Position numbers and translations under genes: made by a program. Positions 9,945-62,874 of a stretch of 64,000 bases of DNA are shown here, in pieces. Every line of letters starts with the position of its first letter. Positions within the stretch are counted from its first letter, which is position 1. The stretch comes from Mobula hypostoma (taxonomy: Eukaryota), in the NCBI RefSeq assembly GCF_963921235.1, contig NC_086108.1:67892001-67956000 (forward strand), written 5' to 3'. Under the pieces are notes generated by a model. It saw nothing but the letters and a program-made list of their open reading frames with translations. It did no database searches and had not been told where the DNA came from.

Positions 9945-12780
9945 AACCATAAGGCCATGAGGCATAGGAGAAGAATTAGACCACTAGGCCCATTGAGTCT
10001 GCTCCACCATTTCATCATGGATGATCCATTTCCCTCGCAACTCCATTCTCCTCCCTTCTCCCTGTAACCTTTCATAACCTGACTAATCAATAACCTATCT
10101 ACCTCTGCCTTAAATACACTCAAAGACCTAGCCTCCACAGCCTCCTGTGGCAACAAATTCCACCAATTCACAAACCTCTAGCTAAAGAAATTACTCCTCA
10201 TCACTGTTCTAAATGGATACCCTTCTATTCTGAGGCTGTGCCCTCTGATCATAGTCTCCACAACCACTCTATCTATGCTTTTAACATTCAATAGGTTTCC
10301 ATGAGATAACCACTCATTCTTCTAAATTCCACCATGTAAAGGCCAGAGTATCAATTGTTCCTCATTATGATAAGCCTTTCATTCCCAGAATCATACTCGT
10401 GAACTTGCTTTGAACCCTCTCCATTATCAGCACATCCTTTCTTAAATAACGGGCCAAAAACTGCTCACAAGATTCCAAATGAGGCCTCACCATTGCCCTA
10501 TGAAATCTCAGCAACACATCCTTGCTTTTATATTCTAGTCCTCTCAAAATGAATGCTAACATTGCATTTGCCCTCCTCACCACTGAAACAACATGCAAAT
10601 TAATCTTTCGGGAATCTTGTATGAGGATTCCCAAGTCCCTTTGCACTTCGGAGTTTTGAATTCTCTCCTCGTTTAGAAAATAATCTATGCTTTTATTCCT
10701 TCTACCAAAGCGCATGACCATACACTTCTCAACTGTATATTCCATTTGGCACTTCTTCGCCCATTCTCCAAATCTGTCAAGTCCCTCTGCAGTCTCCTGC
10801 CTCATCAGCACCTCCACTTGTATCGTCCGCAAACTTAGTCACAAAGTCACCAATTCTTTCATCCAAATCATTGACATACAACGTAAAAAGAAGGGGTCCC
10901 AACACTGACCCCTGCAGAACACTGGGTCAGCTTACGATGACACCACTAGTCACCGGAAACCAATCAGAAACAGTTCCCTTTATTCCCATTTTTTTGCCAA
11001 ACAGCTTATCTGTTATGCTTGCTAGTATTTTTCCTGCAATATTAAGCAGCCTCATGTGTGGCACCTTGTCAAAGGCCCTCGGAAAATTCAAGTACACAAT
11101 AGTCACTGATGCCCCTTTGTCTATCCTGCTTGTTATTTCCTCAAAGAATTCTAACAGATTTGTCAGGCAAGATTTTCCCTTAAGGAAACCGTGCTGACTT
11201 TGGCCTATTTACCATATACCTCCGAGTACCCTGAAACTACATCCTTAACAATCAACTGCATCACTTTCCCAACCAATGAGGTCAGACTAATTGGCCTATA
11301 ATTTCTTTTCTTCAGCCTTCCTCCCTTCTTGAAGAGTAGAGTGACATTTGCAATTTTCCAGTCCCTCGGAACCATTCCAGAATCAATTGACTCTTGAAGA
11401 TCATTCCTAATGCTTCCAAAATCTCTTCAGCTACTCTTTCAGAGCCCTGTGGTGTAGTCTGTCTGGTTGAGGTGACTCATCTACTTTCAGGCCTTTTCGT
11501 CTTCCCAGTAATGGCAACTGCACTCACTTCTGCCCTTTGACCCTCTCGACTTCCGTCATACTGCTAGTGTCTTCCACTGTGAAGACTAATGCAAAATACT
11601 TATTCAGTTCATCTACCATTTCCTTGTCCCCCATTACTACCCCTCTAGTATCATTTTCCAATAATCCAATACATACTCTCACGCTCCTTTACTCTTTATA
11701 TAGCTGAAACAACTTTTGGTATGCTATTCAATATTGTTGGCTAGCTTACCTCCATAGTTCATCTTTTCACATGTGGCTTTTTAGTTGCCTTCTGTTGTTT
11801 TTTTTTAATTCCCAATCCTCTAACTTCCCACTAATTTTTGCTCAATTATATGCTCTCTCTTTGGCTTTTACGTTGGCTTTGACTCCCTTGTCAGTCATGG
11901 TTGCGTCATCCTGCCTTTAGAATACTTTTTTCTTTTTTGGCATCTATCAATCCTGCACCTTCCAAGTAGCCCCTAGAAACTCCAGCCGTTGCTGCTCTGC
12001 CATCATTTCTGCTAGTGTCTCATTCCAATCAATGTTGGCCAATTCCTCTCTCATTCCTCTGTAATACCCTTTACTCTACTGTAATAATGATACATCTGAT
12101 TTTAGCTTCTCCCTCTCAAGTTGCAAGGTGAATTCTATATTATTATGATCACTGCCTCCTAAGGGTTCCTTTATCTAAAGTTCTCTAATCAGATCTGGTT
12201 CATTACACAACACCCAATCCAGAATAGCTGATCACCTAGTGGGATCAACCACAAGCTGCTCTAGAGACTTTCTTACTCTGGCTCCTCATCTTTTGTTCCA
12301 GTCCTGATGAAGGGTCTCAGCCCAAAACTTTAGCTGTACTCTTATCCATAGATGGGGCCTGGCCTGCTGAATTCCTCCAGCATTTTGAGTGTGCTGCTTG
12401 GATTTCCAGCATCTGCAGGTTTTCTTTTGAGCTGCTCTAAAAAACAATCTCATGGGCACTCTACGATCTCCCTGTCTTGGGATCCAACATTAACCTGATT
12501 TTCCCAATCGACCAGCATATTGAAATCCCCAGTGACTAACCTAACATTGCCTTTTTGACAAGCCTTTTCCATCTCCCATTGTAATTTGCGGCCCACATCC
12601 TGGCTGTTGGTCGGAGGTCTGTTTATGCCTCCCATCAAGGTCTTTTTACCCTTGCAGTTGCTTAACTCTACCCACAAGGGTTCTACATCTTCCAATCCTA
12701 TGTCACCCCTTTCCAAGGTTTTGATTCAGTTTTTTTTTTACCAGCAGAGCCACATCACCAACTCTGCCTACCTGCCTGAC
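9945..12780 (-). mobile_element. CR1 LINE, ORF2 endonuclease to 3' end, degenerate
   Basis: Minus ORFs 12450-12716 (LWVEL.NCKGKKTLMG...GDFNM..DW), 10365-10832 and 9935-10171 carry CR1 EN/RT motifs. 3' end near 9950. Confidence 0.95.
12264..12429 (+). mobile_element. Penelope-derived short element with hammerhead-like motif, inserted in CR1
   Basis: CAGTCCTGATGAAGGGTCTCAGCCCAAAAC (GAAA mutated) followed by CCTGGCCTGCTGAATTCCTCCAGC. 10-bp TSD AGCTGCTCTA at 12254-12263 and 12430-12439. Confidence 0.8.
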
Positions 12781-31689: not shown

Positions 31690-34600
31690 AGATTATACAG
31701 TTTAATATGTGGCTAGGGAGCTAGTACAGGAGGGAGGGCATAATATTTTTAGATTATTGGGCTCTCTTCCAGGGAAGATGGGACCTGTACAAAAAGAGAT
31801 GATTTGCACCTGAACTGGAGGGGGACTAATACCCTGGTGGGAAGGTTTATTAATGTAGCACGGTGGGGTTTAAAGAAGAGTTGCAGGGTGATGGGAACCA
31901 GAGTGCCAGAACAGTTAGTAGAGAGGTTGTGGAAGCAGATGTTGGTAAGACGGCAGACAAAGTTAGGAATCAAAAGGTTGAGCTTGGTGCAAAAATCAAT
32001 AAGGGTAGATACAGGACTGAAGGTGCTGTATCTGAATGTGCACAGTATACAGAATAAGGTAGATGAAGGCAGCACAGTTGCAGATTGACAGGTATGATAT
32101 TGCAGGCATCACAGATTCATGGCTGAAAGATTATAGCTGGGAGCTTAATGGCCAAGGATTCACATTGTATCGAAAGGATAGGGAGAAAGGCAGAGGGGGT
32201 GGCGTTGCTCTGTTGGTAAAAAAAATGAAATCATATCATTAGAAAGAATTGACATAGGGTTGGAAGGTGTTGAATCATTGTGGATTGAGCTAAGGAACTG
32301 CAAGGGTAAAAAGACCCAGATAGGAGTTGTATATAGACCCACAACAATAGTAAGGATGTGGTCGACAAATTACAACATAAGATCGAAAATGCATGCCAAA
32401 AGGGCAATGTTCCAATAGTCATGGGGGATTTCAATATGCAAATAGATTGGGTAAATCAGTATGGTGCTGGATTCCAAGAGGGGGAATTTCTAAAATGCCT
32501 ACTAGATGGCTTTTTAGAACAACTCGTGGTTGAGACCACGAGAGGATCAGCTATTCTGGATTGGGTGTTGTGTAATGAACTGGATTTGATTAGTGAGCAT
32601 AAAAACACCATTAGGGGCAAGTGATCATAATATGTTCAAATTCACCCTGAAATTTGAGAAGTTAAAATCAGATGTATTGGCATGAAAGTGGAGTAAAGGG
32701 AATTACAGAGACATGAAAGAGGAGCAGGCCAGAATTGATTCAAAAAGAACTCTGGCAGGGATGATGGCAGAGCAGCAATGGCTGGAACTTCTAGAGGCAA
32801 TTCAGAAGGCACAGGATATATACATCCCAAAGAGGAACAAGTATTCTAAAGGTAAGATGACACAATCATGTCTAACAAGAGAGATCAAAGCCAACATAAA
32901 AGCCAAAGGGAGGGCATATAATAGAGCAAGTATTAGTGGGAAGTTAGAGGATTTGGAAGCTTTTAAAAAACAACAGAAGGTAACTAAAAAAAGTCATTAA
33001 GGTTAAGATGGAATAGAAAAATAAGCTAACCAATAATGTTAAGAGGCTACCAAAAGTTTCTTCAGATTCATAAAGTGTAAAAGAGAGGCAAGAGTGCATA
33101 CTGGACCGCTGAAAAACAATACTGGAGAGGTTGTAATGGGGGACAACGAAAATAGCGGATATAAATATTTTGCAGTATTAGCACTGTAGAAGACATTAGC
33201 AGTATGGTGGAAGTTCCAGGTGTCAAGGGGGCATGAAACACAACTAGAGAGCAGATTCTTGGGAAACTGAAAGATCTGAAGGTAGATAAAGTCACATGGG
33301 CTAGATGGTATACATCCCCGAATTCTGAAAAACAGATAGCTGAAGGGATCATGGAGGCATTAGTAATGATCTTTCAAGAATCACTAGATTCTGGAATGGT
33401 TCCAGAAGACTGAAATATTGCAAATGACACTCCAATCCTCAAGAAGGGAGAGAGGTAGAAGAAAGGAAACTGTAGGCCAGTTAGCCTGACTTCAGTGACA
33501 GGGAAAACATTGGATGAGGTCTCAGGGTACTTAGACGCACATGATAAAACAGACCGCAGTCATCACGGTTTCCATTAGGGAAAATCTTGCCTGAAAAACA
33601 TATTTCTTCAAAAAACTCCAGTACGCAGGATAGTCAAAGGAGAATCAGTTCATGTTGTGTACTTGGACTTTCAGAAGGCCTTTGATAAGGTACCACGCAC
33701 GAGGCTGCTTAACAAGCTACAAGCCCGTGGTATTACAGGAAAGATTCTAGCATGGATAAAGCAGTGGCTGAACGGCAGGAGATAAAGAGTGGGAATAAAG
33801 GGAACCTTCTCTGACTGGCTGCCGGTGACTAGTGGTGTTCCACAGGGGTCTGTATTGGGATAGATTCCTTTTATGTTGTTATATGTCAATGATTTGGATA
33901 ATGGAATTGATGGCTTTGTTGCAAAGTTTGCAGATGATATGAAGATCGGTGGAGGGTGCAGGTAGTTTTGAAGAAGTAGAGAGGCTACAGAAGGACTTAG
34001 AGTAGGAGAATGAGCAAAGAAACAGCAGATGGAATAGTGTCTGGAAATGTATGGTATGCATTTTGGTAGATGAAATGAAAGGGTTGACTATCTTCTAAAT
34101 AGAAAGTACAAAAAAAAAACTGGGGTGCAATGGTGCTTGGGAGTCCTTGTGCAGGATTCCCTAAAGGTTAATTTGCAGGCTGAGTCTGTGGTAAAGGCAG
34201 CAAATACAATGCTAGCATTAATTTAAGACCGTAAGATATAGGAGCAGAAGTAGGCCATTGAGTCTGGTCCGCCATTCAATCATGGGCTGATCCAATTATT
34301 CCAGTCATCCCCACTCCCCTGCTTTCTCCCCATACCCTTCGAAGCCCTGGCTAATCAAGAACCCATCTATCTCTGCCTTAAATGCACCCAATGACTTGGC
34401 CTTGACAGTCACTCAGAGCAACAAATTCCACAGATTTACCACCCTCTGACTAAAGTAATTTCTCTACATCTCAGTTCTAAATGAACGTCCTTCAGTCCTG
34501 AAGTCCTGTCCTCTTGCCCTTGACTCCCCTACCATGGGAAATAATTTTGCCATATCTAATCTGTTCAGGCCTTTTAACATTTGAGATGTTTCTATGAGAT

Positions 34601-35720
34601 CCCCCCCCTCATTCTCCTGAACTCCAGGGAGTAGAGCCCAAGAGCTGCCAGACGTATCTCATACGGTAACCATTTCATTCTTGGAATCATTCTCGTGAAT
34701 CTTCTCTGAACCCTCTCCAATGTCAGTATATCCTTTCTAAAATAAGGAGCCTAAAACTGCAAAACTGCACACAATATTCCAAGTGTGGTCTCACGGGTGC
34801 CTTATGGAGCCTCAACATCACATCTCTGCTCTTATATTCTATACCGCTAGAAATGGATGCCAACATTGCATTCATTGTCTTCACCATCTTCACCACCGAC
34901 TCAACCCGGAAGTCAACTTCTAGGGTATCCTGCACAACGACTCCCAAATCCCTTTGCATCTCTGAATTTTGAATTCTCTCCCCATCTAAATAATAGTCTG
35001 CCCATTTATTTCTTCCACCAAAATGCATGAGCATACACTTTCCAACATTTGCAACTTCTTTGCCCTAAACTATCTAAGTCTCTCTGCAGGCTCTGTTCCC
35101 TCAATACCACCCGAGGACCAGAATATAAATGCAAGAATATAATGCTGAAACTTTACAAAGGACTGGTGAGGCCTCACTCGCAGTATTGTGAGCAAGTCTG
35201 GGTGCCTCATCTTAAAAGGATGTGCTAAAACTGGACAGAGTTCAAAGGAGGTTCATGAGAGTGATCCAGGATTGAACGGTTTGACATATGAAGAGTGTCT
35301 ATGGCTCTCACCCTGTATTCTCTGGAATTCAGAACTATGAGGGGTGACCACATTGAAACCTATCGAAGGGCGAGAGGCCTTGGAAGAGTGGATGTGGAGA
35401 GGATGTTTCCTCTGGTGGGAGAGTCTAAGACCAGAGAACACAACCGCAGAATAGAGGGGCTTCCTTGTTGAACAGAGATGAGGAAGAATTTCTTTAGCCA
35501 GAGGGTGGTGAATCTGAATTCTATGCCACAGGCAGGTGTGGAGACCACATCTTTATGTATATTTAAGGCAGAGGTTGACAGATTCTTGATTGGTCAGGGC
35601 TTGAAGAGATACAGAGAGATGGCAGAAGATTGGGGCCAAGAGGAAAAATGGATCAGCCATGATGAAATGGTGGAGTAGACTCGAATTAAGCCATTTGGTC
35701 CATTTTCTATATCTTTTGGT
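31690..35720 (+). mobile_element. Near full-length CR1 LINE (ORF1 3' part, ORF2, 3' end), degenerate, with nested CR1
   Basis: DDLHLNWRGTN.L (ORF1 esterase-like), LYLNV.SI.NK, MGDFNM.IDW, RGSAILDWVL.NE, KFADD near 33925 and NFFSQRVVNL. Confidence 0.93.
34226..35112 (-). mobile_element. Younger CR1 3' portion inserted antisense into CR1
   Basis: Minus ORF 34723-35034 (MHFGGRNK.ADYYLDGERIQN, RPHLEYCVQF). Host CR1 reads through ...GCATTAATTTAA|GAGGACCAGAATATAAA when the insert is removed. Confidence 0.9.
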
Positions 35721-45675: not shown

Positions 45676-47145
45676 CAGTGTCTTGAAAAAGTATTTAGCC
45701 CCCACAACTACTTCCACATTTTACCATCTCATTTTCTAGATTTAAACTACTTTGTATATTGAATTAGGATTTTTGAGCTAATCTGCATCGTAAAATCAAA
45801 AGAAAAATTCTCAAGCCTGTCAACAATTTACTAATAAAGAAAACCAAAATTGTGGGTCTGAAGAAATCTTTATCCCCTTAGTAATAACTATAGTAACTTT
45901 CCACAGGTGCAATGTACAATATCTTACCATTTCACACAATTTGTTGATATACTGTAGAAAATTTGAGGATCACCTGTTTTCAATGAATTTGTAAGAATAA
46001 ATACCCCTCTCTCTGTAAGGTCCAACAGTACGGCAGATTTTCAATAGATAAACCAAAACAAAGAGAAGTCAGGGAAATGTTAATAGAAGCAGAAATCAAG
46101 ACCACCTTAAAGGACCTGAACATACCTTGGATCTCAGTGCAGTCCATCATGGAAAAAGTGGAAAAATGGAACTGTGGACACACTACCTAGGTCAGGCCAC
46201 TTCTCTAAATTTAGTCACTGGAAAAGGATGACACTTGTAAGAGAGGCTACTGTGATGCCAGCAGTCACTCTGAGTGAGCTGTAGGAGACAGTGGCTGCAG
46301 CTGGAGATGAACTTCATGGCTCAACAATCTCTAAGGCCTTATACGAAAAGGTTACTTATAGAAGAGTAGCAAAGAAGAAGCCTTGATTAAAAAATAAAAG
46401 CACATCCTTGCTCACAGGACTTTGCGAAAAGTCACTTAGAAGATTCTGTACAGATGTAGAAGAAAGTCTTCTGGTCAGATGAGACTAAAGTGGAATTTTT
46501 AGGCCTCAACATTAAGCAGTACATGCACAGTATTAAATACATGGGCATCAGCCAGGTAACACCATCCCTACTGTAAAGAACGATAGTGGTAGCATGTTAT
46601 GGGGATGCATTTCAGCAGCAGGGATGGGAAATCTGTCCAGGAATGATGGGAAGATGAATGCTGCTAAATACAGAGAGATGCTGAATAAAAACGTGTTATT
46701 TCTGCCAGGAGGATCGTCTGGGGAGAAAATTTATCTTTCAGTAGGTCAACAACTCAAAGCACGCTGCCAGAGCAAGCATGGAGTGGCTTCAAATGAAGTA
46801 AATGTTCTTGAGTGGCCCAGTCAGAATCCTGATCTTAACCCAATTAAGCATCTTTAGCAAGGCGTTAACGTTGCTGTCCACCATCGTTGCCCAACTAACC
46901 TGACACAGCCTGAGCAATTTTGCAAGGAGGAACAGACAAATCTTGCTTTATCACGTTGTACAAAGCCAATAGAGATTTATCCAAAAGATTACTGGCTGTA
47001 ATTGCTGCAAGAAGTGGCTCAACTAAGTACTAAGGAAAGGGGGATGAATACTTTTGAACTACTGACATTTCAGTTTCTGAATTTATAGTTTTTATGCTTT
47101 ATAATTTACTGTTTTTTGGGCCTTATAGTGAAAAGAGGAGCATGT
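45676..47145 (+). mobile_element. Tc1-family DNA transposon, decayed transposase, right end probably truncated
   Basis: Left end CAGTGTCTTGAAAAAGTATTTAGCCCC. Transposase motifs WSDETK (about 46472), MLWGC and EWPSQNPDLNPI.HL. Inverted repeat GGGGATGAATACTTTTGAACTACTG at 47040-47064. Confidence 0.9.
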
Positions 47146-48440: not shown

Positions 48441-50760
48441 TGATAAAGTAATAATAGAATCAAGGACAATACTAAGGAAATCATTCTTCCAATTTAGCTC
48501 AAATGGGTTTTTATACACTGGCTCAGTTCATCCAATACCTCACCTATTCCTTCATTCTTCCACAATTAGTGTCCTCTCAAGCATTTATCCAATTCTTTTT
48601 GAAGGCCCTGATGCCAGATAAAGTGTCACTGGCAAGAATAGCACTTAAAACTTATTGCCAAAAGCATTCAAGAAGGTGGGAGTAAGTCTGCGGTCCTTCT
48701 TGTGATAGTACATTGACAATGATGTTCCACAATATGATCTATCACTAGAACTATGAAAAATGAGAAATCCAACACATTTTAAATCCTAGAAGTGGTTTGG
48801 TGAAGAGAACAACAAAAATGTCTGCAATAGAGTAGAGGCAAAGAGAGACTAATTAAATGATAACAGACTCAAATGGGAGAGAGTGGTAAAGACTTCTTAT
48901 AACTGATCTTTCTGGAGGAGGAGGAGTCAATAGAACTGTAGAATTGTGGAATAGTTACAACAGAGAAGTGGCCCAAAGGTCCATATTGTCTATGCTGACT
49001 CTCTATGGGAACAAATTATTAGTTACAACTCCATCAGCGATTTCTCTGTAGCATTACACATTTTTATTTAATATATATTAGTACAAGTCTCTTAAAGTCC
49101 ACAGAAGAACTTGCCTCCACCATATCCAGAAGTAGATGCATTTGGATTTTCATCATGTGCTGCACAAAGAAATTTTTCTTCTATGCCACAATGATACACT
49201 TTACAACTTACTTAATCCTTGACCTCTCCAAAGGGAATAGCTTCCCATTATCCACTCATCTTTTCATCAGATCTCCCCTCAGCTTTTCCTCTTAAAAATA
49301 ACCCACCCTTAAATCTTGTGCCTGTTGTTCATATCCCAGGAACCAATCCCATAACGAGAAGGCAATAGATAAGCAAGAGAAAAAGCAAAAACAAAAAGCA
49401 ATGTAGCAACAGTGGAATACAAACTCCTGTGCTCATAAGAAATACTCAAACAGATCATGCAATATCTCTGGAGAAGAAAACCTGCTGGTTTTTGAAAGGA
49501 AATGCACATATCTTTTAGGTGAAGTAACTTAACTTCATTTTAATTATGTTTTAGGTGATTATTAGAGTCTGCATCCCAACTTTCTCCCTTCTTCTTGTCC
49601 AGACTCTTGGTTCACAGGCAGTATTCTTTGTCTCAAACATTTGGGGAAATTCACATACAACTCAAAACAGAGAAAGACAAAGCAAATTAGATCTCTATTC
49701 TTTTCCTTACTATTTACTGCTGTAATCTGTAGAGCTCACTACACACAATGAAGAACTAGCCTATTTATTTCTTCAGGACTCTTTGTTTAACACTAAGTGC
49801 ATCAGTATGGTAAATAATTGAAGCACACTTCAATTCCCAAATATACTCCAGTCATATTGTTTGGTTCTAGGCATATAGATATAAATCTACTCCATAAAAT
49901 GTATAATCCAAATTAATGAAATTTCACAGTATCATAGTTTTCACCATGAAAATAAAATGTACTGGATTAAAACAAAACCAATGTAAAATAGGTACATTGA
50001 TGTTCATACCCCAGCAAAATCAAGCTTCTTGAATCTTCTAATGCTAAGTAAAGTCTGACACTCAAAGTGTTTGATCTGGAGGCAGCATTTTAACCTTGTT
50101 GTTGTACTACTAATGTGATATAATAAACACCTGCCCTTGGAAAGGCCACAAAGCAATTGCAATTTCCTTCAATTTGCCTTATGAGACGAAAGGGCAATTT
50201 CAATTAAATCAAGCCAGGAAGCTGTGGTGTCTGAGTGCTTAATTAGTTCTGAAGGGAAATTATAGCACTGAAAAGATGCTGTCACAACCTTTCATCTGCA
50301 CATTTACCTGTCACTCCTCATTATTAGCCCTATTAGGAGAGAATTTGTAGGTATTGCATTTATTTTTTTTATCCCGTATTGTTCAAAAAAGTGTTTGGTA
50401 ACTGACAGTTCCAGAATCTTTGTTGCTCTCTCGCTCTCTCTCTCCTTTGTACTCATCTACTTACATCTCCTCCACATAAATCAGCTGAGATTAACAAGCC
50501 TTCAGCATCCTCTCTCAGTTGGCTCCACTGTTATCACCCCATGTGTCATTCAGTCTCTCTTGGTCTCCAGCCTATCACAGACATCCCCTTTATTCACCCC
50601 ACTTCTCTCCTTCTCTCCTCTCAAGTCTTCAACTTGAACTTTTGGATTTTTTTCCTCATTCTGATGAAAGGGCATCGACCTGAACTGTTTATTCTGCTTT
50701 TCCTTCTAACGAAGGAGAAACATTGAGTGTTTTCAACATTCTCACTGTCTGAAAAAGAAA

Positions 50761-51442
50761 TGTAGCCCCCTGGTAAGCCTCAGGCTCGCTCAACTCGCTT
50801 TCATCTAGGGGGAGCAGCCTTCGGCCCTGACAAACTGGGTAATCAAGTTTGTGTGCCTGCTGTGTGATGTACCCCACCATGCCAAATAACAGACAATACA
50901 CCATATGCGATTAAATGATTACACTTTATAGATCTTACTGGAACTATGTAATTAATAGATTAAATATAAAAGGAAAATAAAAGGCGCCAAGTTCAACCAC
51001 TTCATGCAAAACAGTTGGAGCTCAATTAACGAGTCTTCTTTCCACCATTCGATCCCCTCGACCCCGGTGGTCAACCAGACAGGCCACATGAGTTTGTCTT
51101 TGTCTCCTCTCCTGGCCGAAGACCCTGGGCCTCGGACTCCCGCTCAGGGACGGTCCTGCCGCCCAGGGTCACAGCATCGCGTCTCCTCTCTTTGTCCCCA
51201 TCGCACCTTCTGCCCCAAAGCCCACAAACAATAGTTTACCGACACACAAGAAAGAATAACATCTATCCCAATTGGTTAACAAATGAATACAATGCTCTTA
51301 TCAGTAATATAACCCAAACAAGCAGAGAGAGAAAACTCCTTACATCGCAGTTATTATTACAGAAAAGCCATTTTAATTATAACATAACAAAGAAGTCATT
51401 TTGTTAGCCTTCGCAGTAACATAAAAGAAGAAGCCCCTTACA
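50761..51442 (-). repeat. 3' LTR
   Basis: TGTAGCCCCCTGG...CCCCTTACA, a direct repeat of 53934-54656 with several short deletions. Adjacent to the PPT. Confidence 0.95.
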
Positions 51443-51455
51443 TTCTCCCCCCACC
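51443..51455 (-). promoter_or_regulatory. Polypurine tract
   Basis: GGTGGGGGGAGAA immediately before the 3' LTR on the minus strand. Confidence 0.85.
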
Positions 51456-51947
51456 AAATAAAGTCATGTCCTCATGACTTTTAAATAACTCGCCAACCAT
51501 TCCTGCAGACAGTAAAACCCAATCCAGGTACAAACAGTCACATTGCTCCCCAAACAGTAGACCTTACGCCCTGTTCCACGGGCGCTACATAGGCCAACCT
51601 ATCTGGGAGTTTCGTAATCTTCCAAGACCTCCGTACCCCTCACCTAAACCCTTCAGGCTCGTACACTACTGGGGATACCTCGGGTCTGCTTGCCAACTCC
51701 TCTCTCAATCTCTCACTCATGCCCCCACTGCAACTCGGAGCCCCCTGTCCCGTGTCTAGGGCCCTGCTTCTTTTCCTTCCGGGTCCTGCTGTAACCCAGG
51801 CTTCCCACAGCTAGCCCTCCCCACTACACCTGACTCAGTGGGAGAAGGGCCAAAGGTCTCTTCCTCAATCAAGGGGAAGTTATCGAAAGGCAGCATGTAC
51901 CACACATCCCTCACATCATCCTTTGAATCCGTATTCTTCCTCATTTC

Positions 51948-52304
51948 CTCAATCAGTAGCTGCTGTTTGATTTTCTCCAAACTGAAGCACTTATCCTGGG
52001 CTGCCTCTGCAGCCTCTGCAGCCTCCTGCAGTCAAGACGTCAGCTTCTTCTCTGACTCCTCCAACTCCCGCCCCAGTCTCAGCAGTTCTGACTCAAGCTT
52101 CGTGGCCATCTCCATCTGGGACACAATTACACCACCAGCTTCTTCCAATCTATTCTGGATCGATTTCTTGAGTTTCTGCTGATCCTTTCGAAGGTTGGTC
52201 ATTGTTTCGTCTCTCTGGATTAATTCATCAGTAAATGACCGCAGTTTCGGATCGGAATTACGTTTCCCCGTCTCCACTTTGATGAGCATGAACCCCAATT
52301 CTTC
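51948..52304 (-). pseudogene. Captured sarcomeric myosin heavy-chain rod fragments (three segments, one frame, one internal TGA)
   Basis: EELGFMLIKVETGKRNSDPKLRSFTDEL..RDETMTNLRKDQ / RLEEAGG...SQMEM..KLESELLRL.RELEES / [36 protein letters not shown] resemble the class II myosin rod motifs [42 protein letters not shown] and [34 protein letters not shown] (recalled, not searched). Confidence 0.8.
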
Positions 52305-52324: not shown

Positions 52325-52630
52325 GCGAATCCAAACCCTAGGCGATCATCCCACATACGCCAAAACTCCAAACATCTCCACATCCCCCATGGTCTTCCCC
52401 ACGCCCCGCGAGAAGGTTGCAGGGACTCGAGATATGCCCTGTGGCATCTTTTCGGATCAGAAGAATCCTAGGAGACCTATAACGGCTGTCTTCTCCTTGT
52501 CGGCCTCACTCATCGGGATCTGGCAACATCCACTCCTCAGATCCAGCACATTAAACCACGTCACACCATACAAACAGACCATCGCATCTTCAGCCCTCAG
52601 GGCCGTATTCTGGTCAATTCTGTTCAGAGT
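52325..52630 (-). pseudogene. Gypsy reverse transcriptase N-terminal remnant
   Basis: Manual translation: [59 protein letters not shown]...VLAYV(frameshift)DDRLGFG. Confidence 0.85.
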
Positions 52631-52802
52631 CCTACAATCTCACACCCACACCGCCTACGTCTTCCACGGCTACAGGGTCCAGTCGCCGCGACCTCTCTCT
52701 CACCGAGGTGTCTTCAGTGGTTAACTCCCCTCCCTTGTGGTATTTTGGAGTGTCTACTAAGAGGGTCTCAGCCTCAGATACATCCCCTAGGCTGCACCAC
52801 AA

Positions 52803-53130
52803 TCAGCTCTCGTTTAAATTCAGTACCGGCCCAAGGCTGCTACACACGTCCTCACAAGCAGCTCGAAACATTAGGTGCACAGACAATGCCCCGATGAACT
52901 CCAGTGTCACTGACCAATAATCGTCTTCTGGATAATCACCGGCACTGGTACCCCAAATCTCCAGTGCCCTTAATGTTGTCAAGGGTAAATGCTTCAGAAA
53001 CCAGTTGTAAAACGAACTGTACAACAACTTGACCTGCACCCCAATGTCGAGGATGGCTTTAGCATAGCTTCCATCTATCCGTAATGACACACAGGGGCGT
53101 GGTCCCTCTAAGCCTTCAGGAATAGGGTCT
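52803..53130 (-). pseudogene. Gypsy aspartic protease remnant
   Basis: IPEGLEGP....[22 protein letters not shown]...LKHLPL, with the active-site LD(T/S)G altered to LDIG. Confidence 0.8.
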
Positions 53131-53199
53131 ATTCCTTTCGGCAGTTCCCTGGTACCTTGCTGGGAACGTGCTCCCCCAGAAACCCCAAGCTGTTCCCCC

Positions 53200-53900
53200 A
53201 ATGGGCCTCCACTAAGTTTCCCGACACCTCTCTGATCAGCTGAACAACTGAGGGAGGGGCTGATCCCCTTAAATTATCCCCCTGGCACTGCAAGCAATTT
53301 AGCTGTCCTCCTAGCCAAAGAAGATACACTGAAAGCTTTTCCCCCAATCTCCTGACACAGGTATGGAAAGTCCCCCAGGTGCTGCATTTTACTTCCAGTC
53401 GAACCAGTCGCTTTCAGATAACTGGCAGCTGTCACTACCGGGTAATTGACCCTGACAGTTCTGACAATGTCAACAGCCCGCCTACTCAAACTTTCAACCA
53501 ATCCCTGTCGCTCTCCCTCAACTGAGCACTGCCACTCATCTAACAACTGAGAGATCACCTCCACCCACGTCTCATACTCCTCCGCCCTTTTAGGGGTGGA
53601 CAATATCCCAAAAGCTAGGCGGAGCCTGCCATAGCTGTAACATTTATTCACAGACACTACATCTGAATCAGACCACTCTTTCCTCTCTCTCCCAACAGTA
53701 TGGACAGCCCATGGTTCTGCCTCACCTGGGGCACCAATAGACACTGACAGTCCCACCACCAGCTCGTCAGAGCTAGTCTGAACTCGAACAAAGACCTCCG
53801 AGGCACCAACAGCCACCCCACCCAACACGCATGCAGGAATAACCAGCAATCCTACAGAGACACAGCAGCACTGATTTAAACAGGGCAATCACACAGCACC
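53200..53900 (-). pseudogene. PNMA/Ma-like Gypsy gag remnant
   Basis: Y.RLR..FG...TP...EEYETW......L.EWQCS...RQ.LVESL...A.DIVR is characteristic of PNMA-type capsids. Confidence 0.8.
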
Positions 53901-53912
53901 CCACTGAATCAA

Positions 53913-53931
53913 ATCTCGGACAAAGCCCCGA
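53913..53931 (-). promoter_or_regulatory. Degenerate primer-binding site, tRNA-Pro-like
   Basis: TCGGGGCTTTGTCCGAGAT two bases after the 5' LTR, versus canonical PBS-Pro TGGGGGCTCGTCCGGGAT. Confidence 0.75.
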
Positions 53932-53933
53932 AA

Positions 53934-54656
53934 TGTAGCCCCCTGGTAAGCCTCAGGCTCGCTCAACTCGCTTTCATCTAGGGGGAGCAGCCTTCGGCCC
54001 TGACAAACTGGGTAATCAAGTTTGTGTGCCTGCTGTGTGATGTACCCCACCATGCCAAATAACAGACAATACACCATATGCGATTAAATGATTACACTTT
54101 ATAGATCTTACTGGAACTATGTAATTAATAGAGATAAAATATAAAAGGAAAATAAAAGGCACCAAACTTATCAAAGTTCAACCACTCTGTGCACAACAGT
54201 TGGAGCTCAATTAATGGAGTCTTCTTTCCACCATTCGATCCCCTCTGATCCCCTCGACCCGCTGCCTGGGACCAACCATGGTGGTCAGCCAGACACTCCA
54301 CACTAGTCTGTCTTCGTCTCCTCTCCTCGCCGAAGACCCTGGGCCTTGAACTCCCACTCAGGGTCGGTCCCGCCGCCCAGGGTCACAGCATTACATCTCC
54401 TCTCTTTGTCCCCATCGAGCCTTATGCCCCAAAGCCTGCGAACAATAGCTTACAGACACACAAGAAAGAATACCATCTATCCCAATTGGTTAACAAATGA
54501 ATACAATGCTCTTATCAGTAATATAACCCAAACAAGCAGAGAGAGAAAACTCCTTACATCGCAGTTATTATTACAGAAAAGCCATTTTAATTATAACATA
54601 ACAAAGAAGCCATTTTGTTAGCCTTCACAGTAACATAAAAGAAGAAACCCCTTACA
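53934..54656 (-). repeat. 5' LTR
   Basis: Direct repeat of 50761-51442. Adjacent to the PBS. Confidence 0.95.
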
Positions 54657-55384
54657 GAAACTTCTTTGACAAAAACATTCAAATTCTTTGGTGTAGTTGA
54701 TGAAAGTTTGCCAAATAATCAACAGTTTGATCTCTTATGCATAATACTTCTCTGAATCCTTTGCATTTTCTTCATTTCTAAATGCTTAATTCTTTTTAAA
54801 CATTCAATAAGTTACAACCCCACCCCTCAACTGTGCAGGAAGACCAAAGCAAGAAAAAATATAAATATTCTGGAGTATTCAATAGCACCATAATTTTTTA
54901 TTCAAGTATTGTGTTTTGGAAAAGCATACATTTTGTGTAAATCAACATGCTATGTTAGCATATGTTAACTGAATGTTTTAAAACGGATCATTAATAAAAC
55001 TCTTCTGAGAGTTACCTATGCAAAAAAATATCAGCACTTTATTCAGAACCTACATTTGCACAATCAACCTGGAACTCAATGCCCCCTTTGCAACTGGATT
55101 CTTGACTTCCTGAAAAGAGACGACAATCAGTAAGGATGAGCAGCAATACCTCCACTGTGATTATTCTCAACACTGGTGTACCACACAGCTGCATCTTCAG
55201 CCACCAGCTCCACTCCCAATGCACTTACCAATGGATCTCAAGGGAGACATATATGTACTTTGATAATAAATTTACTTTGACTTTAACTGCATGATGAGAT
55301 TCTACTCGAACTCCATCTACAAGTTTGCAGTTGCTACCACTGTAGTGGGCCGTATCTCAAATAATGATGAGTCAGAGTGCAGGA

Positions 55385-59719: not shown

Positions 59720-60035
59720 TACACAGCCTATATAAAGTAATCATTGCCGCACTGTTCTTGGTAGCGAAAATCTCACAGAAGCTCTCTCGGCAGAAACATT
59801 CTCTCCAGTAACCTTTAAGCTATGAAGCTGCCAAATCATACCAAATAACATGTAAAAATACACAGCCTATATAAAGTAGAAATACTTACCTACAATCATT
59901 GCCGCACTGTTCTCAGTAGCGAAAATCTCACAGAAGCGCTCTCGGCAGAAACACTCTCTCCAGTAACCTTTAACCTATGAAGCTGCCAAATCATACCAAA
60001 TAACACATAAAAATACACAGCCTACATAAAGTAGA
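59720..60035. repeat. Tandem duplication (unit about 140-155 bp, two copies plus partial) inside the Tigger element
   Basis: ACACAGCCTATATAAAGTA...ATCATTGCCGCACTGTT...CCAAATCATACCAAATAACA is repeated. Confidence 0.9.
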
Positions 60036-60139
60036 AATAATGTATGTACAGTGTAGTATCACTTACTGGAATTGGGAAGACAGTGCCGAGCACACTAATG
60101 ATGGTGTGTTAAGCTGAGTCGTCGGAGGTTGGGGTGGTG

Positions 60140-60465: not shown

Positions 60466-62050
60466 TGGTGCAGATATCCCACCCTGCAAAAACTCATTTC
60501 AGGCAGGTAGCACCATCAATTTGCGGGAGACTCCCAGTACTTCTGGGAGAGGTGGGATGCCTGCATTCGTTCATTAGCATAGATAACGTTATTTAAACTA
60601 GTTGGCTAGCTGCTAAGGAGCTACTCTATTAGTGGGACACTGGGGTGTCATCCCATCGTCGTCTGTTTCCATCAGGGCAGGGAGGTCATCTTCTTCTATG
60701 TCTGCCTGCCTCGATGTTGAAGGTCAAGGTTCGTCGTCCGCTGTGGCTGATGTGGAAGGATTGAAAAACAACAGTATGCTTAACTGCTTATCCTCGCGCA
60801 TTTTTCTATCATCTCACGCGGTTGCTTCATGTTCAGTTCCTGGACGACTTCACTTTCGGTCCGTTCGCTACTGCATTCAGTTTCGATTGTTATCCTTTCC
60901 TCTTCCAACTGCATCAGCTCTTCATCTATCAGTTCTTGGTCATGGGAAGCCAAAACCTCTTCAATATCATCTTCGTCAACTTCCACAAGCCAAACTCACT
61001 TTGTCCTTACTTCGTTCACCATGATCAAAACGCTTAATTATGTCTAGTTTTATGCTAAGTGTAACACCCTTACAAGATCTTTTAGGCTTTTCCGATACCT
61101 TAGAACTCATCTTGCTAACGGATGCTCAAAATAAATCAACATAAAGCACAGATGCTCACAGGCACGTGTTTATGCAATGCCGGCTAGAATGCAGTTCCGG
61201 GGGAGGAACTTGGCTGCTCAGGGCACGCGACGCACTGCCTTTTATCACGCGCTGCTTTTTTCGCACGCTGCCTTTTCTCGTAACGGTGGAAACACCTTCT
61301 GTTAGCGAAAGTAGGTAACTAATGTAGGTCTTTCATAACTGCAAGGTTTCGTAAAGCGAACGTTCGAAAAGCGGGGGACACCTATATACAGATTTCCAAG
61401 CAGTAGTAAGGACGAAGTCTACAAATTACAATGTGATATAGAAAATGCATGCCTAAAGGGCAATGTTACAACAGTCATGGGGGATTTCAATATGCTGGTA
61501 GATTGGTAAAATCAGGTTGGTACTGGATTCGAGGAGGGGGAGTTTCTAGAGTGCTTGCAAGTTGGCTTTTTAAAGCAACTCGTGCTTGAGCCCAGTAAGG
61601 GATGAGCTATTCTGGACTGGGTGTTGTGTACTGAAACGGAATTGATTAGAGAGCTTAAGGTAAAAGAACCCTAAGTGGCAAGTGATCATAATATGACAGA
61701 ATTCACCTTGAAATTTGAGAAGGAGAAGCTGATGTCTGATATATCAATATTACAGAGGATTAAAGGGAATTACACAGGCATGAGAAAGGAGTTGACCAGA
61801 ATTGATTGGAAAAGAACACTGGCAGGGATGACGGCAGAGCAACAATGACTGGAATTTTTGGAAGCAATTCAGAAGGTACAGGATATATACATCTCAAAGA
61901 AGAAGAAGGAAAGATGACACAACCGTGGCTAACAAGAGAAGTCAAAGCCAACATAAAAGTCAAATATATATTAGATCAAAAATTAGTGAGAAGTTAGAGG
62001 ATTGGGAAGCTTTTAAAAACTAACAGAAAGCAATTAAAAAGGTCATTCGA

Positions 62051-62183
62051 TCACAAACAAGAGAAAATCTGCAGTTGCTGGAAATCCAAACAATACCCAC
62101 AAAAAGCTGGAGGAATTCAGCAGGCCAGGCAGCATCTATGGAAAAGGGTGTAGTTAAGGTTTCGGGCCGAGACCCTTCAGCAG
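62051..62183 (-). mobile_element. Penelope-derived short element
   Basis: Minus strand CTGCTGAAGGGTCTCGGCCCGAAACC...CCTGGCCTGCTGAATTCCTCCAGC...GCAGATTTTCTCTTGTTTGT. Confidence 0.8.
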
Positions 62184-62874
62184 CATTCATTTCAAGAGGA
62201 CTAGAATATAAGAACAAAGATGTAATACTGAAGCTTTATAATGCATTGGTCAGACCACACTTTGAATATTATGAGCAGTTTTGGCCCCTTCTCTCAGAAA
62301 AGATGTGGAGGTCCAGAGGAGGTTTACGAGAATGATTTTGGGAATGAAAGGAGCTCTGGTCCTGTACTTGATGGAGTTTATAAGAATGAGGAAGGATCTC
62401 ATTGAAACACATTGAATATTGAAAGGCTCTGATAAAGTGGATGCAGAAAGTATGTTTCCTATAGAGGGGGAGTCTCGGATCAGAGGGCACAATGTCAGAA
62501 TAGAGGGACATCCATTTCGAATAGAGATGAGAAAGAATTACTTTAGCCAGAGGGTAGTAAATCTGTGGAATTCGTTCCCATAGATGGCTGTGGAGGCCAA
62601 GTCATTGGGTATATTTCAAGCAGAAGTTGATAGGTTCTTGATTAGTCGAGGTATTAAAGGTTATGGGGAGAAGGCAAAAGAGGGGTTGAGAGGGATAATA
62701 AATAAGCCATGATGGAATGATGGAGCAGGCTTAATAGGTCAAATGGCCTAAATCTGCATCTTTGTCTTATGGTCTAAATCAGATGCATTACAGTATATGC
62801 ACGCACATTCCCAAATTACATATTCATTAGGTGCATAATGCATCAACAGCGCAGTACTGAAAATCACTCGGACA

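Follow-up and report, generated by a model that had tools for sequence, protein, structure and literature searches.

The closest described systems are long terminal repeat (LTR) elements that carry pieces of host genes. In LTR-mediated retroposition, as set out for metazoans in the portions of Tan et al. 2016 drawn on here (PMC5131818), part of a spliced mRNA replaces part of the internal open reading frames (ORFs) between two LTRs. In that account the switch points between LTR element and mRNA show a median of 6 bp of similarity, and the retrocopies, with zebrafish among the hosts, go through further rounds of copying as non-autonomous elements (PMC5131818). A second case is maize Bs1, an LTR element whose transduced host gene segments have been rearranged into a chimeric frame. 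The segments come from three different genes, and the portions of the source used here describe the product as a new chimeric gene (PMC13317346).

The locus reported here lies in a 64,000-nt window (the whole stretch of DNA that was analysed) of the ray Mobula hypostoma. It is a decayed Gypsy-type LTR element on the minus strand (54656-50761) that houses a mosaic of three myosin rod pieces. Like the retrocopies in the cited portions of Tan et al., it holds intron-less host sequence that crosses exon borders and replaces part of an internal ORF. It differs from them, as far as that account goes, in having joins inside the cargo that form a dated deletion series, and in belonging to an abundant family found across manta rays and stingrays. 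Bs1, on the part of its description used here, is also an LTR element with rearranged host segments, whereas the ray pieces all fit one myosin rod and have no evident function. The order of PNMA-type gag, protease and reverse transcriptase (RT) is shared with PNMA-gag Ty3/Gypsy elements (P0016, P0020, P0028), but the ray element lacks RNase H and integrase, has pol replaced by myosin rod and is non-autonomous. Among sarcomeric myosin rods (MYH7, MYH4, teleost fast MYH, MYH16), the comparison with the teleost rod gives 31-58% identity, by piece; unlike native myosin, the insert has no motor, amounts to about 125 of roughly 1100 rod residues and breaks the heptad register. We found no report of the element family in the literature, and the main text of the manta genome preprint (10.64898/2026.10.27.761883) contains neither 'myosin' nor 'MYH'.

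We consider it probable that the insert came from one spliced mRNA, likely that of MYH16, and was shortened stepwise at short repeats, with the reading frame kept as a by-product. The element would then be a case of a known process, LTR-mediated retroposition, followed by serial microhomology deletions, and it gives no sign of function.

The host element and its myosin insert

The element shows the Ty3/Gypsy hallmarks of paired LTRs, a target-site duplication and a polypurine tract. All of its parts read on the minus strand. The 5' LTR (53934-54656, 723 nt) and the 3' LTR (50761-51442, 682 nt) both have TG...CA ends and are flanked by the same four letters, TTTC, at 54657-54660 and 50757-50760, with the polypurine tract, as read from the sequence, at 51443-51452. 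Directly after the 5' LTR lies a primer-binding-site-like stretch (53913-53931), which we take to resemble an internal tRNA-iMet primer site. The interior has gag, protease and RT homology to Gypsy proteins: a PNMA-type gag (capsid) remnant at 53397-53633 (PF14893, E 1.4e-10; tblastn with P0020, E 2e-08), an aspartyl protease remnant at 52830-53195 (tblastn with the Gypsy pol proteins P0016, P0019 and P0028, the first of which carries Asp_protease_2) and an N-terminal RT remnant at 52352-52718 (matching P0016 residues 344-363 and 402-500; RVT_1 in family models). The RT remnant is 52-62% identical to Gypsy pol proteins and contains internal deletions, a frameshift and a stop. Pol is thus a deletion series too, with P0016 residues 114 to 344 and 363 to 402 collapsed. 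No match to RNase H or integrase was found in the element interior and the RT is truncated and broken, which sets the element apart from autonomous Ty3/Gypsy elements. Most of pol is replaced by the myosin rod insert, that is, by host sequence. The insert is followed by an in-frame tail at 51756-51935, likely the 3' end of pol, which is common to P0007, P0024 and P0031; its motif was found in none of the long proteins retrieved.

Several observations concern the history of this copy and its surroundings. Of the 36 substitutions that separate the LTR pair in 682 aligned letters, 31 are confined to positions 201-500 of the 5' LTR, as are 39 of 41 gap columns (four substitutions lie before this block and one after). 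Such a mosaic suggests conversion or recombination with another copy, and the block pattern rules out LTR divergence as a clock, a use that we discarded. Relative to P0007, a small deletion near 52330 puts RT and myosin out of frame in the window copy. In the stretch 52351-52315, contig 14 of run X19 carries 216 letters against 35 in the window and fits the type of P0006, in which both RT and 5' myosin are longer. The element is also entered at 51909 from other upstream sequence by 28 contigs of run X2. Elsewhere in the window there are dispersed repeats of 65-82% identity and up to 1.8 kb (466-1362, 9950-12263, 32345-35682 and 61401-62779), probably LINE copies, an open stretch at 46537-46857 on the plus strand that is presumably a Tc1/mariner transposase fragment, and two tandem copies of a 155-nt unit at 59739-60039 that are 94% alike.

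The three myosin rod pieces follow one another in a single minus-strand frame, 52337-51756, as the original prediction had claimed. A PDB search placed them on MYH7 at 955 to about 1002, 1133-1181 and 1349/1386-1422 (best match E 5.7e-08, to an MYH7 1361-1425 chimera), and chain mapping on four teleost rods gave 955-1002, 1146-1181 and 1390-1420. In MYH7-equivalent numbering, piece 1 (52141-52304) covers 955-1009, piece 2 (52053-52147) covers 1149/1150-1181 and piece 3 (51954-52067) covers 1385-1422. Join 1 skips 143 rod residues and join 2 skips 208 on MYH7 numbering, in agreement with the predicted spacings of roughly 140 and 200. The predicted overlap on ELEE at join 2 is found at 52067-52056, with S extending it to 52053; the whole ELEES overlap zone spans 52051-52067. 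The order of the pieces stands, but their predicted limits needed correction, since piece 1 reaches 52141 and not 52155, and piece 3 ends near 51954. Two features had been missed: an in-frame stop at 52034-52032 and a 7-nt overlap at join 1 (52147-52141, window letters TGGAAGA), which is shared by both ends of a longer form of the insert. A Pfam scan of seven family proteins at E 0.01 gave no myosin-tail match.

The ray family and the deletion at join 1

The element family is abundant in rays and spans manta rays and stingrays. In two presumed-DNA runs from two organisms, 2118 and 3179 contigs were placed on 1 kb of the element. Close relatives in protein searches were ray records only (3 of 75 and 3 of 2102 candidates, plus cluster mates), and nine further members were found among the best 150 of 283 matches of the representative search. 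Of the resulting 18 family models, 17 are named, and these come from Mobula hypostoma, M. birostris, Hypanus sabinus and Hemitrygon akajei; P0009 was discarded as an unrelated member of its cluster. All short 'myosin-like' records proved to be element copies with RT or tail sequence. A metagenome search with P0007 gave 38 pattern matches, none of them confirmed, and an ESM Atlas search with P0022 gave no usable match. Three RefSeq models (P0031, P0026 and P0011) fuse host sequence to the element's myosin piece; the names of the fused models are SDHAF3 isoform X1 (Hypanus), GSTT2 isoform X1 (Mobula) and uncharacterized (Hemitrygon). In P0031 and P0026 the entry point lies close to the beginning of piece 2, which would fit use of an acceptor-like site in the long form, and the fusions possibly reflect exonisation or annotation error.

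Family members differ at join 1. The window-type join is present in 4 of 18 models (P0003, P0004, P0006, P0007). Another ten (P0002, P0005, P0008, P0010, P0011, P0012, P0014, P0015, P0022, P0024) keep rod lost at this join, which maps to 1009-1105 with small gaps; they are RefSeq protein models that may hide predicted introns, and their DNA support is confined to 30 letters on either side of join 1. The remaining four are uninformative or otherwise deleted at this place. Longer, less deleted copies of this kind were what the original prediction had proposed to look for. Their retention of the lost rod marks join 1 as a later loss within the element and gives no support to a jump on the host mRNA at this place. 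An insert that had been captured in longer form lost 92-101 codons there, the window copy being short of 92 codons relative to P0005 and of 101 relative to the form without a 9-residue gap.

Contigs from four runs, two of which (X17 and X19) are presumed RNA by guess, show the same two states. The short join is bridged by contig records in X2, X5 and X19 (bridging records 18, 19, 26). Loose ends leave the window at 52141 in all four runs (3, 7, 5 and 6 contigs, with X2 = 3 and X5 = 7) and enter it at 52147 in X17 and X19 (three contigs in X19). Both forms of the join therefore occur in the presumed-DNA runs X2 and X5, from two organisms. In X17, loose ends at 52147 and 52153 are mixed (agreement 0.59-0.60).

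Two properties of the join itself bear on its origin. The microhomology, which the original prediction had suggested measuring, is an exact overlap of 7 nt common to both ends, and an overlap of at least 7 nt is expected at 0.05-0.25% of random deletions. No cut within it leaves a GT, so join 1 is not a splice. The long forms carry a further join, from 1105 to 1148 (42 residues), which keeps the heptad register and is common to manta and stingray models. Lineage-specific in-frame deletions of 3, 4, 9 and about 24 residues, and larger ones, also occur in the insert, and a wider deletion series is seen in P0012, P0013, P0014, P0022, P0024 and P0005, all of them protein models.

Retroviruses delete at short sequence repeats. 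For the ray element, a stepwise history can be proposed. One spliced MYH mRNA would have been captured through a template switch of the kind described in Tan et al. 2016. Two joins, join 2 and 1105/1148, may have formed at or soon after capture, before the manta and stingray copies split, judging by their sharing, and join 1 would have followed inside the element, where longer copies survive. The deletions were likely made by RT switching templates as helper-driven copying went through successive rounds. After insertion at the window site, the copy would have decayed neutrally, acquiring its stop and frameshifts.

The same microhomology deletions could instead have arisen in the integrated DNA of a few master copies, by end joining or illegitimate recombination, and then been amplified. 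On general grounds, microhomology-mediated end joining would account for the 7-nt overlap just as well, and the window copy does have its own small deletion near 52330. Yet the losses recur across lineages and along both pol and the insert, in an element that has been copied many times, and the cited portions of PMC5131818 document RT switches at short stretches of similarity in LTR elements. The observations themselves are compatible with both routes; we regard deletion in integrated DNA as unlikely and template switching by RT as the more probable.

The reading frame across the joins

Joins 1, 2 and 1105/1148 and the smaller deletions in the models are all in frame, which raises the question of selection. 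Founder elements might have been selected, through every deletion, to hold one open RT-myosin-tail frame, with the coiled coil or the open frame aiding packaging or RNA stability and so explaining the spread of the family. In P0007, RT, myosin and tail form one continuous 297-aa frame, and the indels listed (12 of 56) are all in the RT part and none in the myosin part. On the other hand, the protein search favours copies with open frames and finds only these, and the repeat content of rod-coding DNA accounts for the frame.

In particular, we collected exact repeats of at least 7 nt, lying 60-900 nt apart, in codons 920-1430 of four teleost rod coding sequences. Between 73 and 85% of them are in frame, compared with 30-36% after the bases are shuffled and 75-86% after the codons are shuffled. 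Since the bias survives codon shuffling, it stems from codon make-up and not from heptads. Given this repeat phase, the chance of two in-frame joins is about 0.5-0.7, not 0.11, and two in-frame joins therefore need no selection. Because the repeats lie mostly in codon phase, frame retention would be a by-product of repeat-guided deletion. The heptad register, by comparison, is kept by 32-41% of in-frame repeats, and both joins of the window copy break it (1007 e runs onto 1150 a at join 1; 1181 d is followed by 1390 a at join 2). Jumps guided by the heptad register were accordingly discarded; the joins followed codon-level similarity instead.

The state of the copies also speaks to the matter. 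The stop at 52034-52032 is private to the window copy, in that the family models are open at this place and, in 4 of 4 runs, nearly all contig depth disagrees with the window at 52034. Among the 40 variant rows listed (of 393), 16 fall in the myosin part, with 3, 7 and 6 at codon positions 1, 2 and 3. Invariant columns number 25 of 65 among eight copies versus 57 of 65 among seven teleost genes. P0002, P0005 and P0011 have built up four prolines in 62 residues, against none in 550 native residues. The a/d columns are not more conserved than others in the eight copies (0.75 vs 0.93 extra states, p 0.31), a comparison of low power in which the native control shows little contrast. With its stop, frameshifts and broken register, the window copy does not look like a functional coiled-coil fusion, and selection at the level of the family is weakly tested by these data. 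Of the two causes of frame retention in the original prediction, homology-guided jumps are sufficient, and selection on a fusion protein gained no support from this weak test. We think it quite improbable that the frame was selected, and infer that the insert is neutral cargo.

Join 2 and the probable donor mRNA

The donor was approached through stand-ins: metagenomes supplied 82 myosin loci, and spliced alignments were made for 10 teleost and 22 invertebrate loci among them. The overlap at join 2, the identity of the donor and its intron map rest on these teleost and invertebrate genes. Teleost rod introns lie at codons 894, 975, 1034, 1082, 1113, 1243, 1285, 1325, 1390 (phase 2) and 1452. 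Piece 1 runs across the codon-975 position (between 52245 and 52244), where an intron is present in 7 of 7 covering teleost loci, and the long-form copies also span positions 1034 and 1082, with teleost gene structure as the reference. As piece 1 crosses a conserved intron position, the insert likely derives from a spliced mRNA, judged on teleost gene structure. The original prediction of RT jumps on a spliced mRNA therefore holds for the spliced origin and for the homology at the joins, but not for the placing of both jumps on the host mRNA.

The donor is probably MYH16. P0005 and P0024 bear this name in RefSeq (other models are named cardiac, skeletal, striated or 7B), and the motifs of the insert presumably resemble those of MYH16. 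According to the part of PMC6402096 used here, MYH16 carries five extra introns. A search for the ray donor gene with P0005 19-205 among longer proteins gave 0 of 1444 candidates. In the 32 loci analysed there are no introns at 1006-1009, 1148-1152 or 1177-1182, and the nearest one is an invertebrate intron at codon 1012 (10 of 22 loci). Intron calls at 1106 and 1113 in one locus (L078) were taken as artefacts of a poorly aligned end, though 1106 adjoins the 1105/1148 join.

Join 2 is found in 14 of 14 models that have both of its sides, in manta and stingray alike; of the others, two stop before it and in two the second piece has gone through other deletions. None of the 18 family models keeps rod 1182-1384, and no loose end or joint at join 2 appears among the 24 loose ends (of 494) and 15 joints (of 20) listed. 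The right end of the join is at most five codons away from the phase-2 intron at 1390 (between 52051 and 52050 in the window), if it does not coincide with it; this intron is present in 7 of 7 covering teleost loci and 3 invertebrate loci. Such a position would suit mis-splicing or exon skipping before capture, in which a cryptic donor within the 1113-1242 exon was joined to the codon-1390 acceptor. The left end, however, is mid-exon: none of the 32 loci has an intron there and the equivalent site lacks a GT in 7 of 7 teleost genes. Exon skipping, which the original prediction named as an outcome that would overturn it, places both ends of a join on splice sites, and on the stand-in genes join 1 has neither end on such a site and join 2 its right end only.

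When exon positions were ranked by their likeness to the 17 nt that precede the natural donor, the left site of join 2 also came within the first 1-6 of 374. Homology-guided joining explains this likeness, and splicing would not predict such a coincidence. Similarly, the 15-nt windows at 1177-1181 and 1385-1389 have 10-13 of 15 letters alike in the teleost stand-ins, a pair that ranks in the top 0.001-0.4% of 204,750 pairs in four teleost genes. The overlap at join 2 may have lain in the donor itself, and we hold mis-splicing to be very unlikely. Finally, although join 2 and the 1105/1148 join, which no model lacks, could date from capture, it is extremely improbable that all jumps took place in one capture event on the host mRNA or that the pieces adjoin natively in some host gene, since the longer copies keep the rod lost at join 1 (which already refutes a single event for that join, unless short and long forms are independent captures) and all short 'myosin-like' records are element copies.

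Stepwise shortening at short repeats thus remains the preferred reading, and the family offers a natural example of a captured vertebrate gene being shortened by successive deletions. On the practical side, copies are annotated as myosin genes or fused to host genes in ray RefSeq models. The repeat-phase result also provides a simple null for coiled-coil coding DNA, where short exact repeats lie in frame in about four cases out of five; it follows that in-frame retroelement mosaics alone are no evidence of selection. If the open frame were nevertheless selected, the ray element would stand beside Bs1 as its vertebrate counterpart, and its cargo would have a role in the spread of the element.
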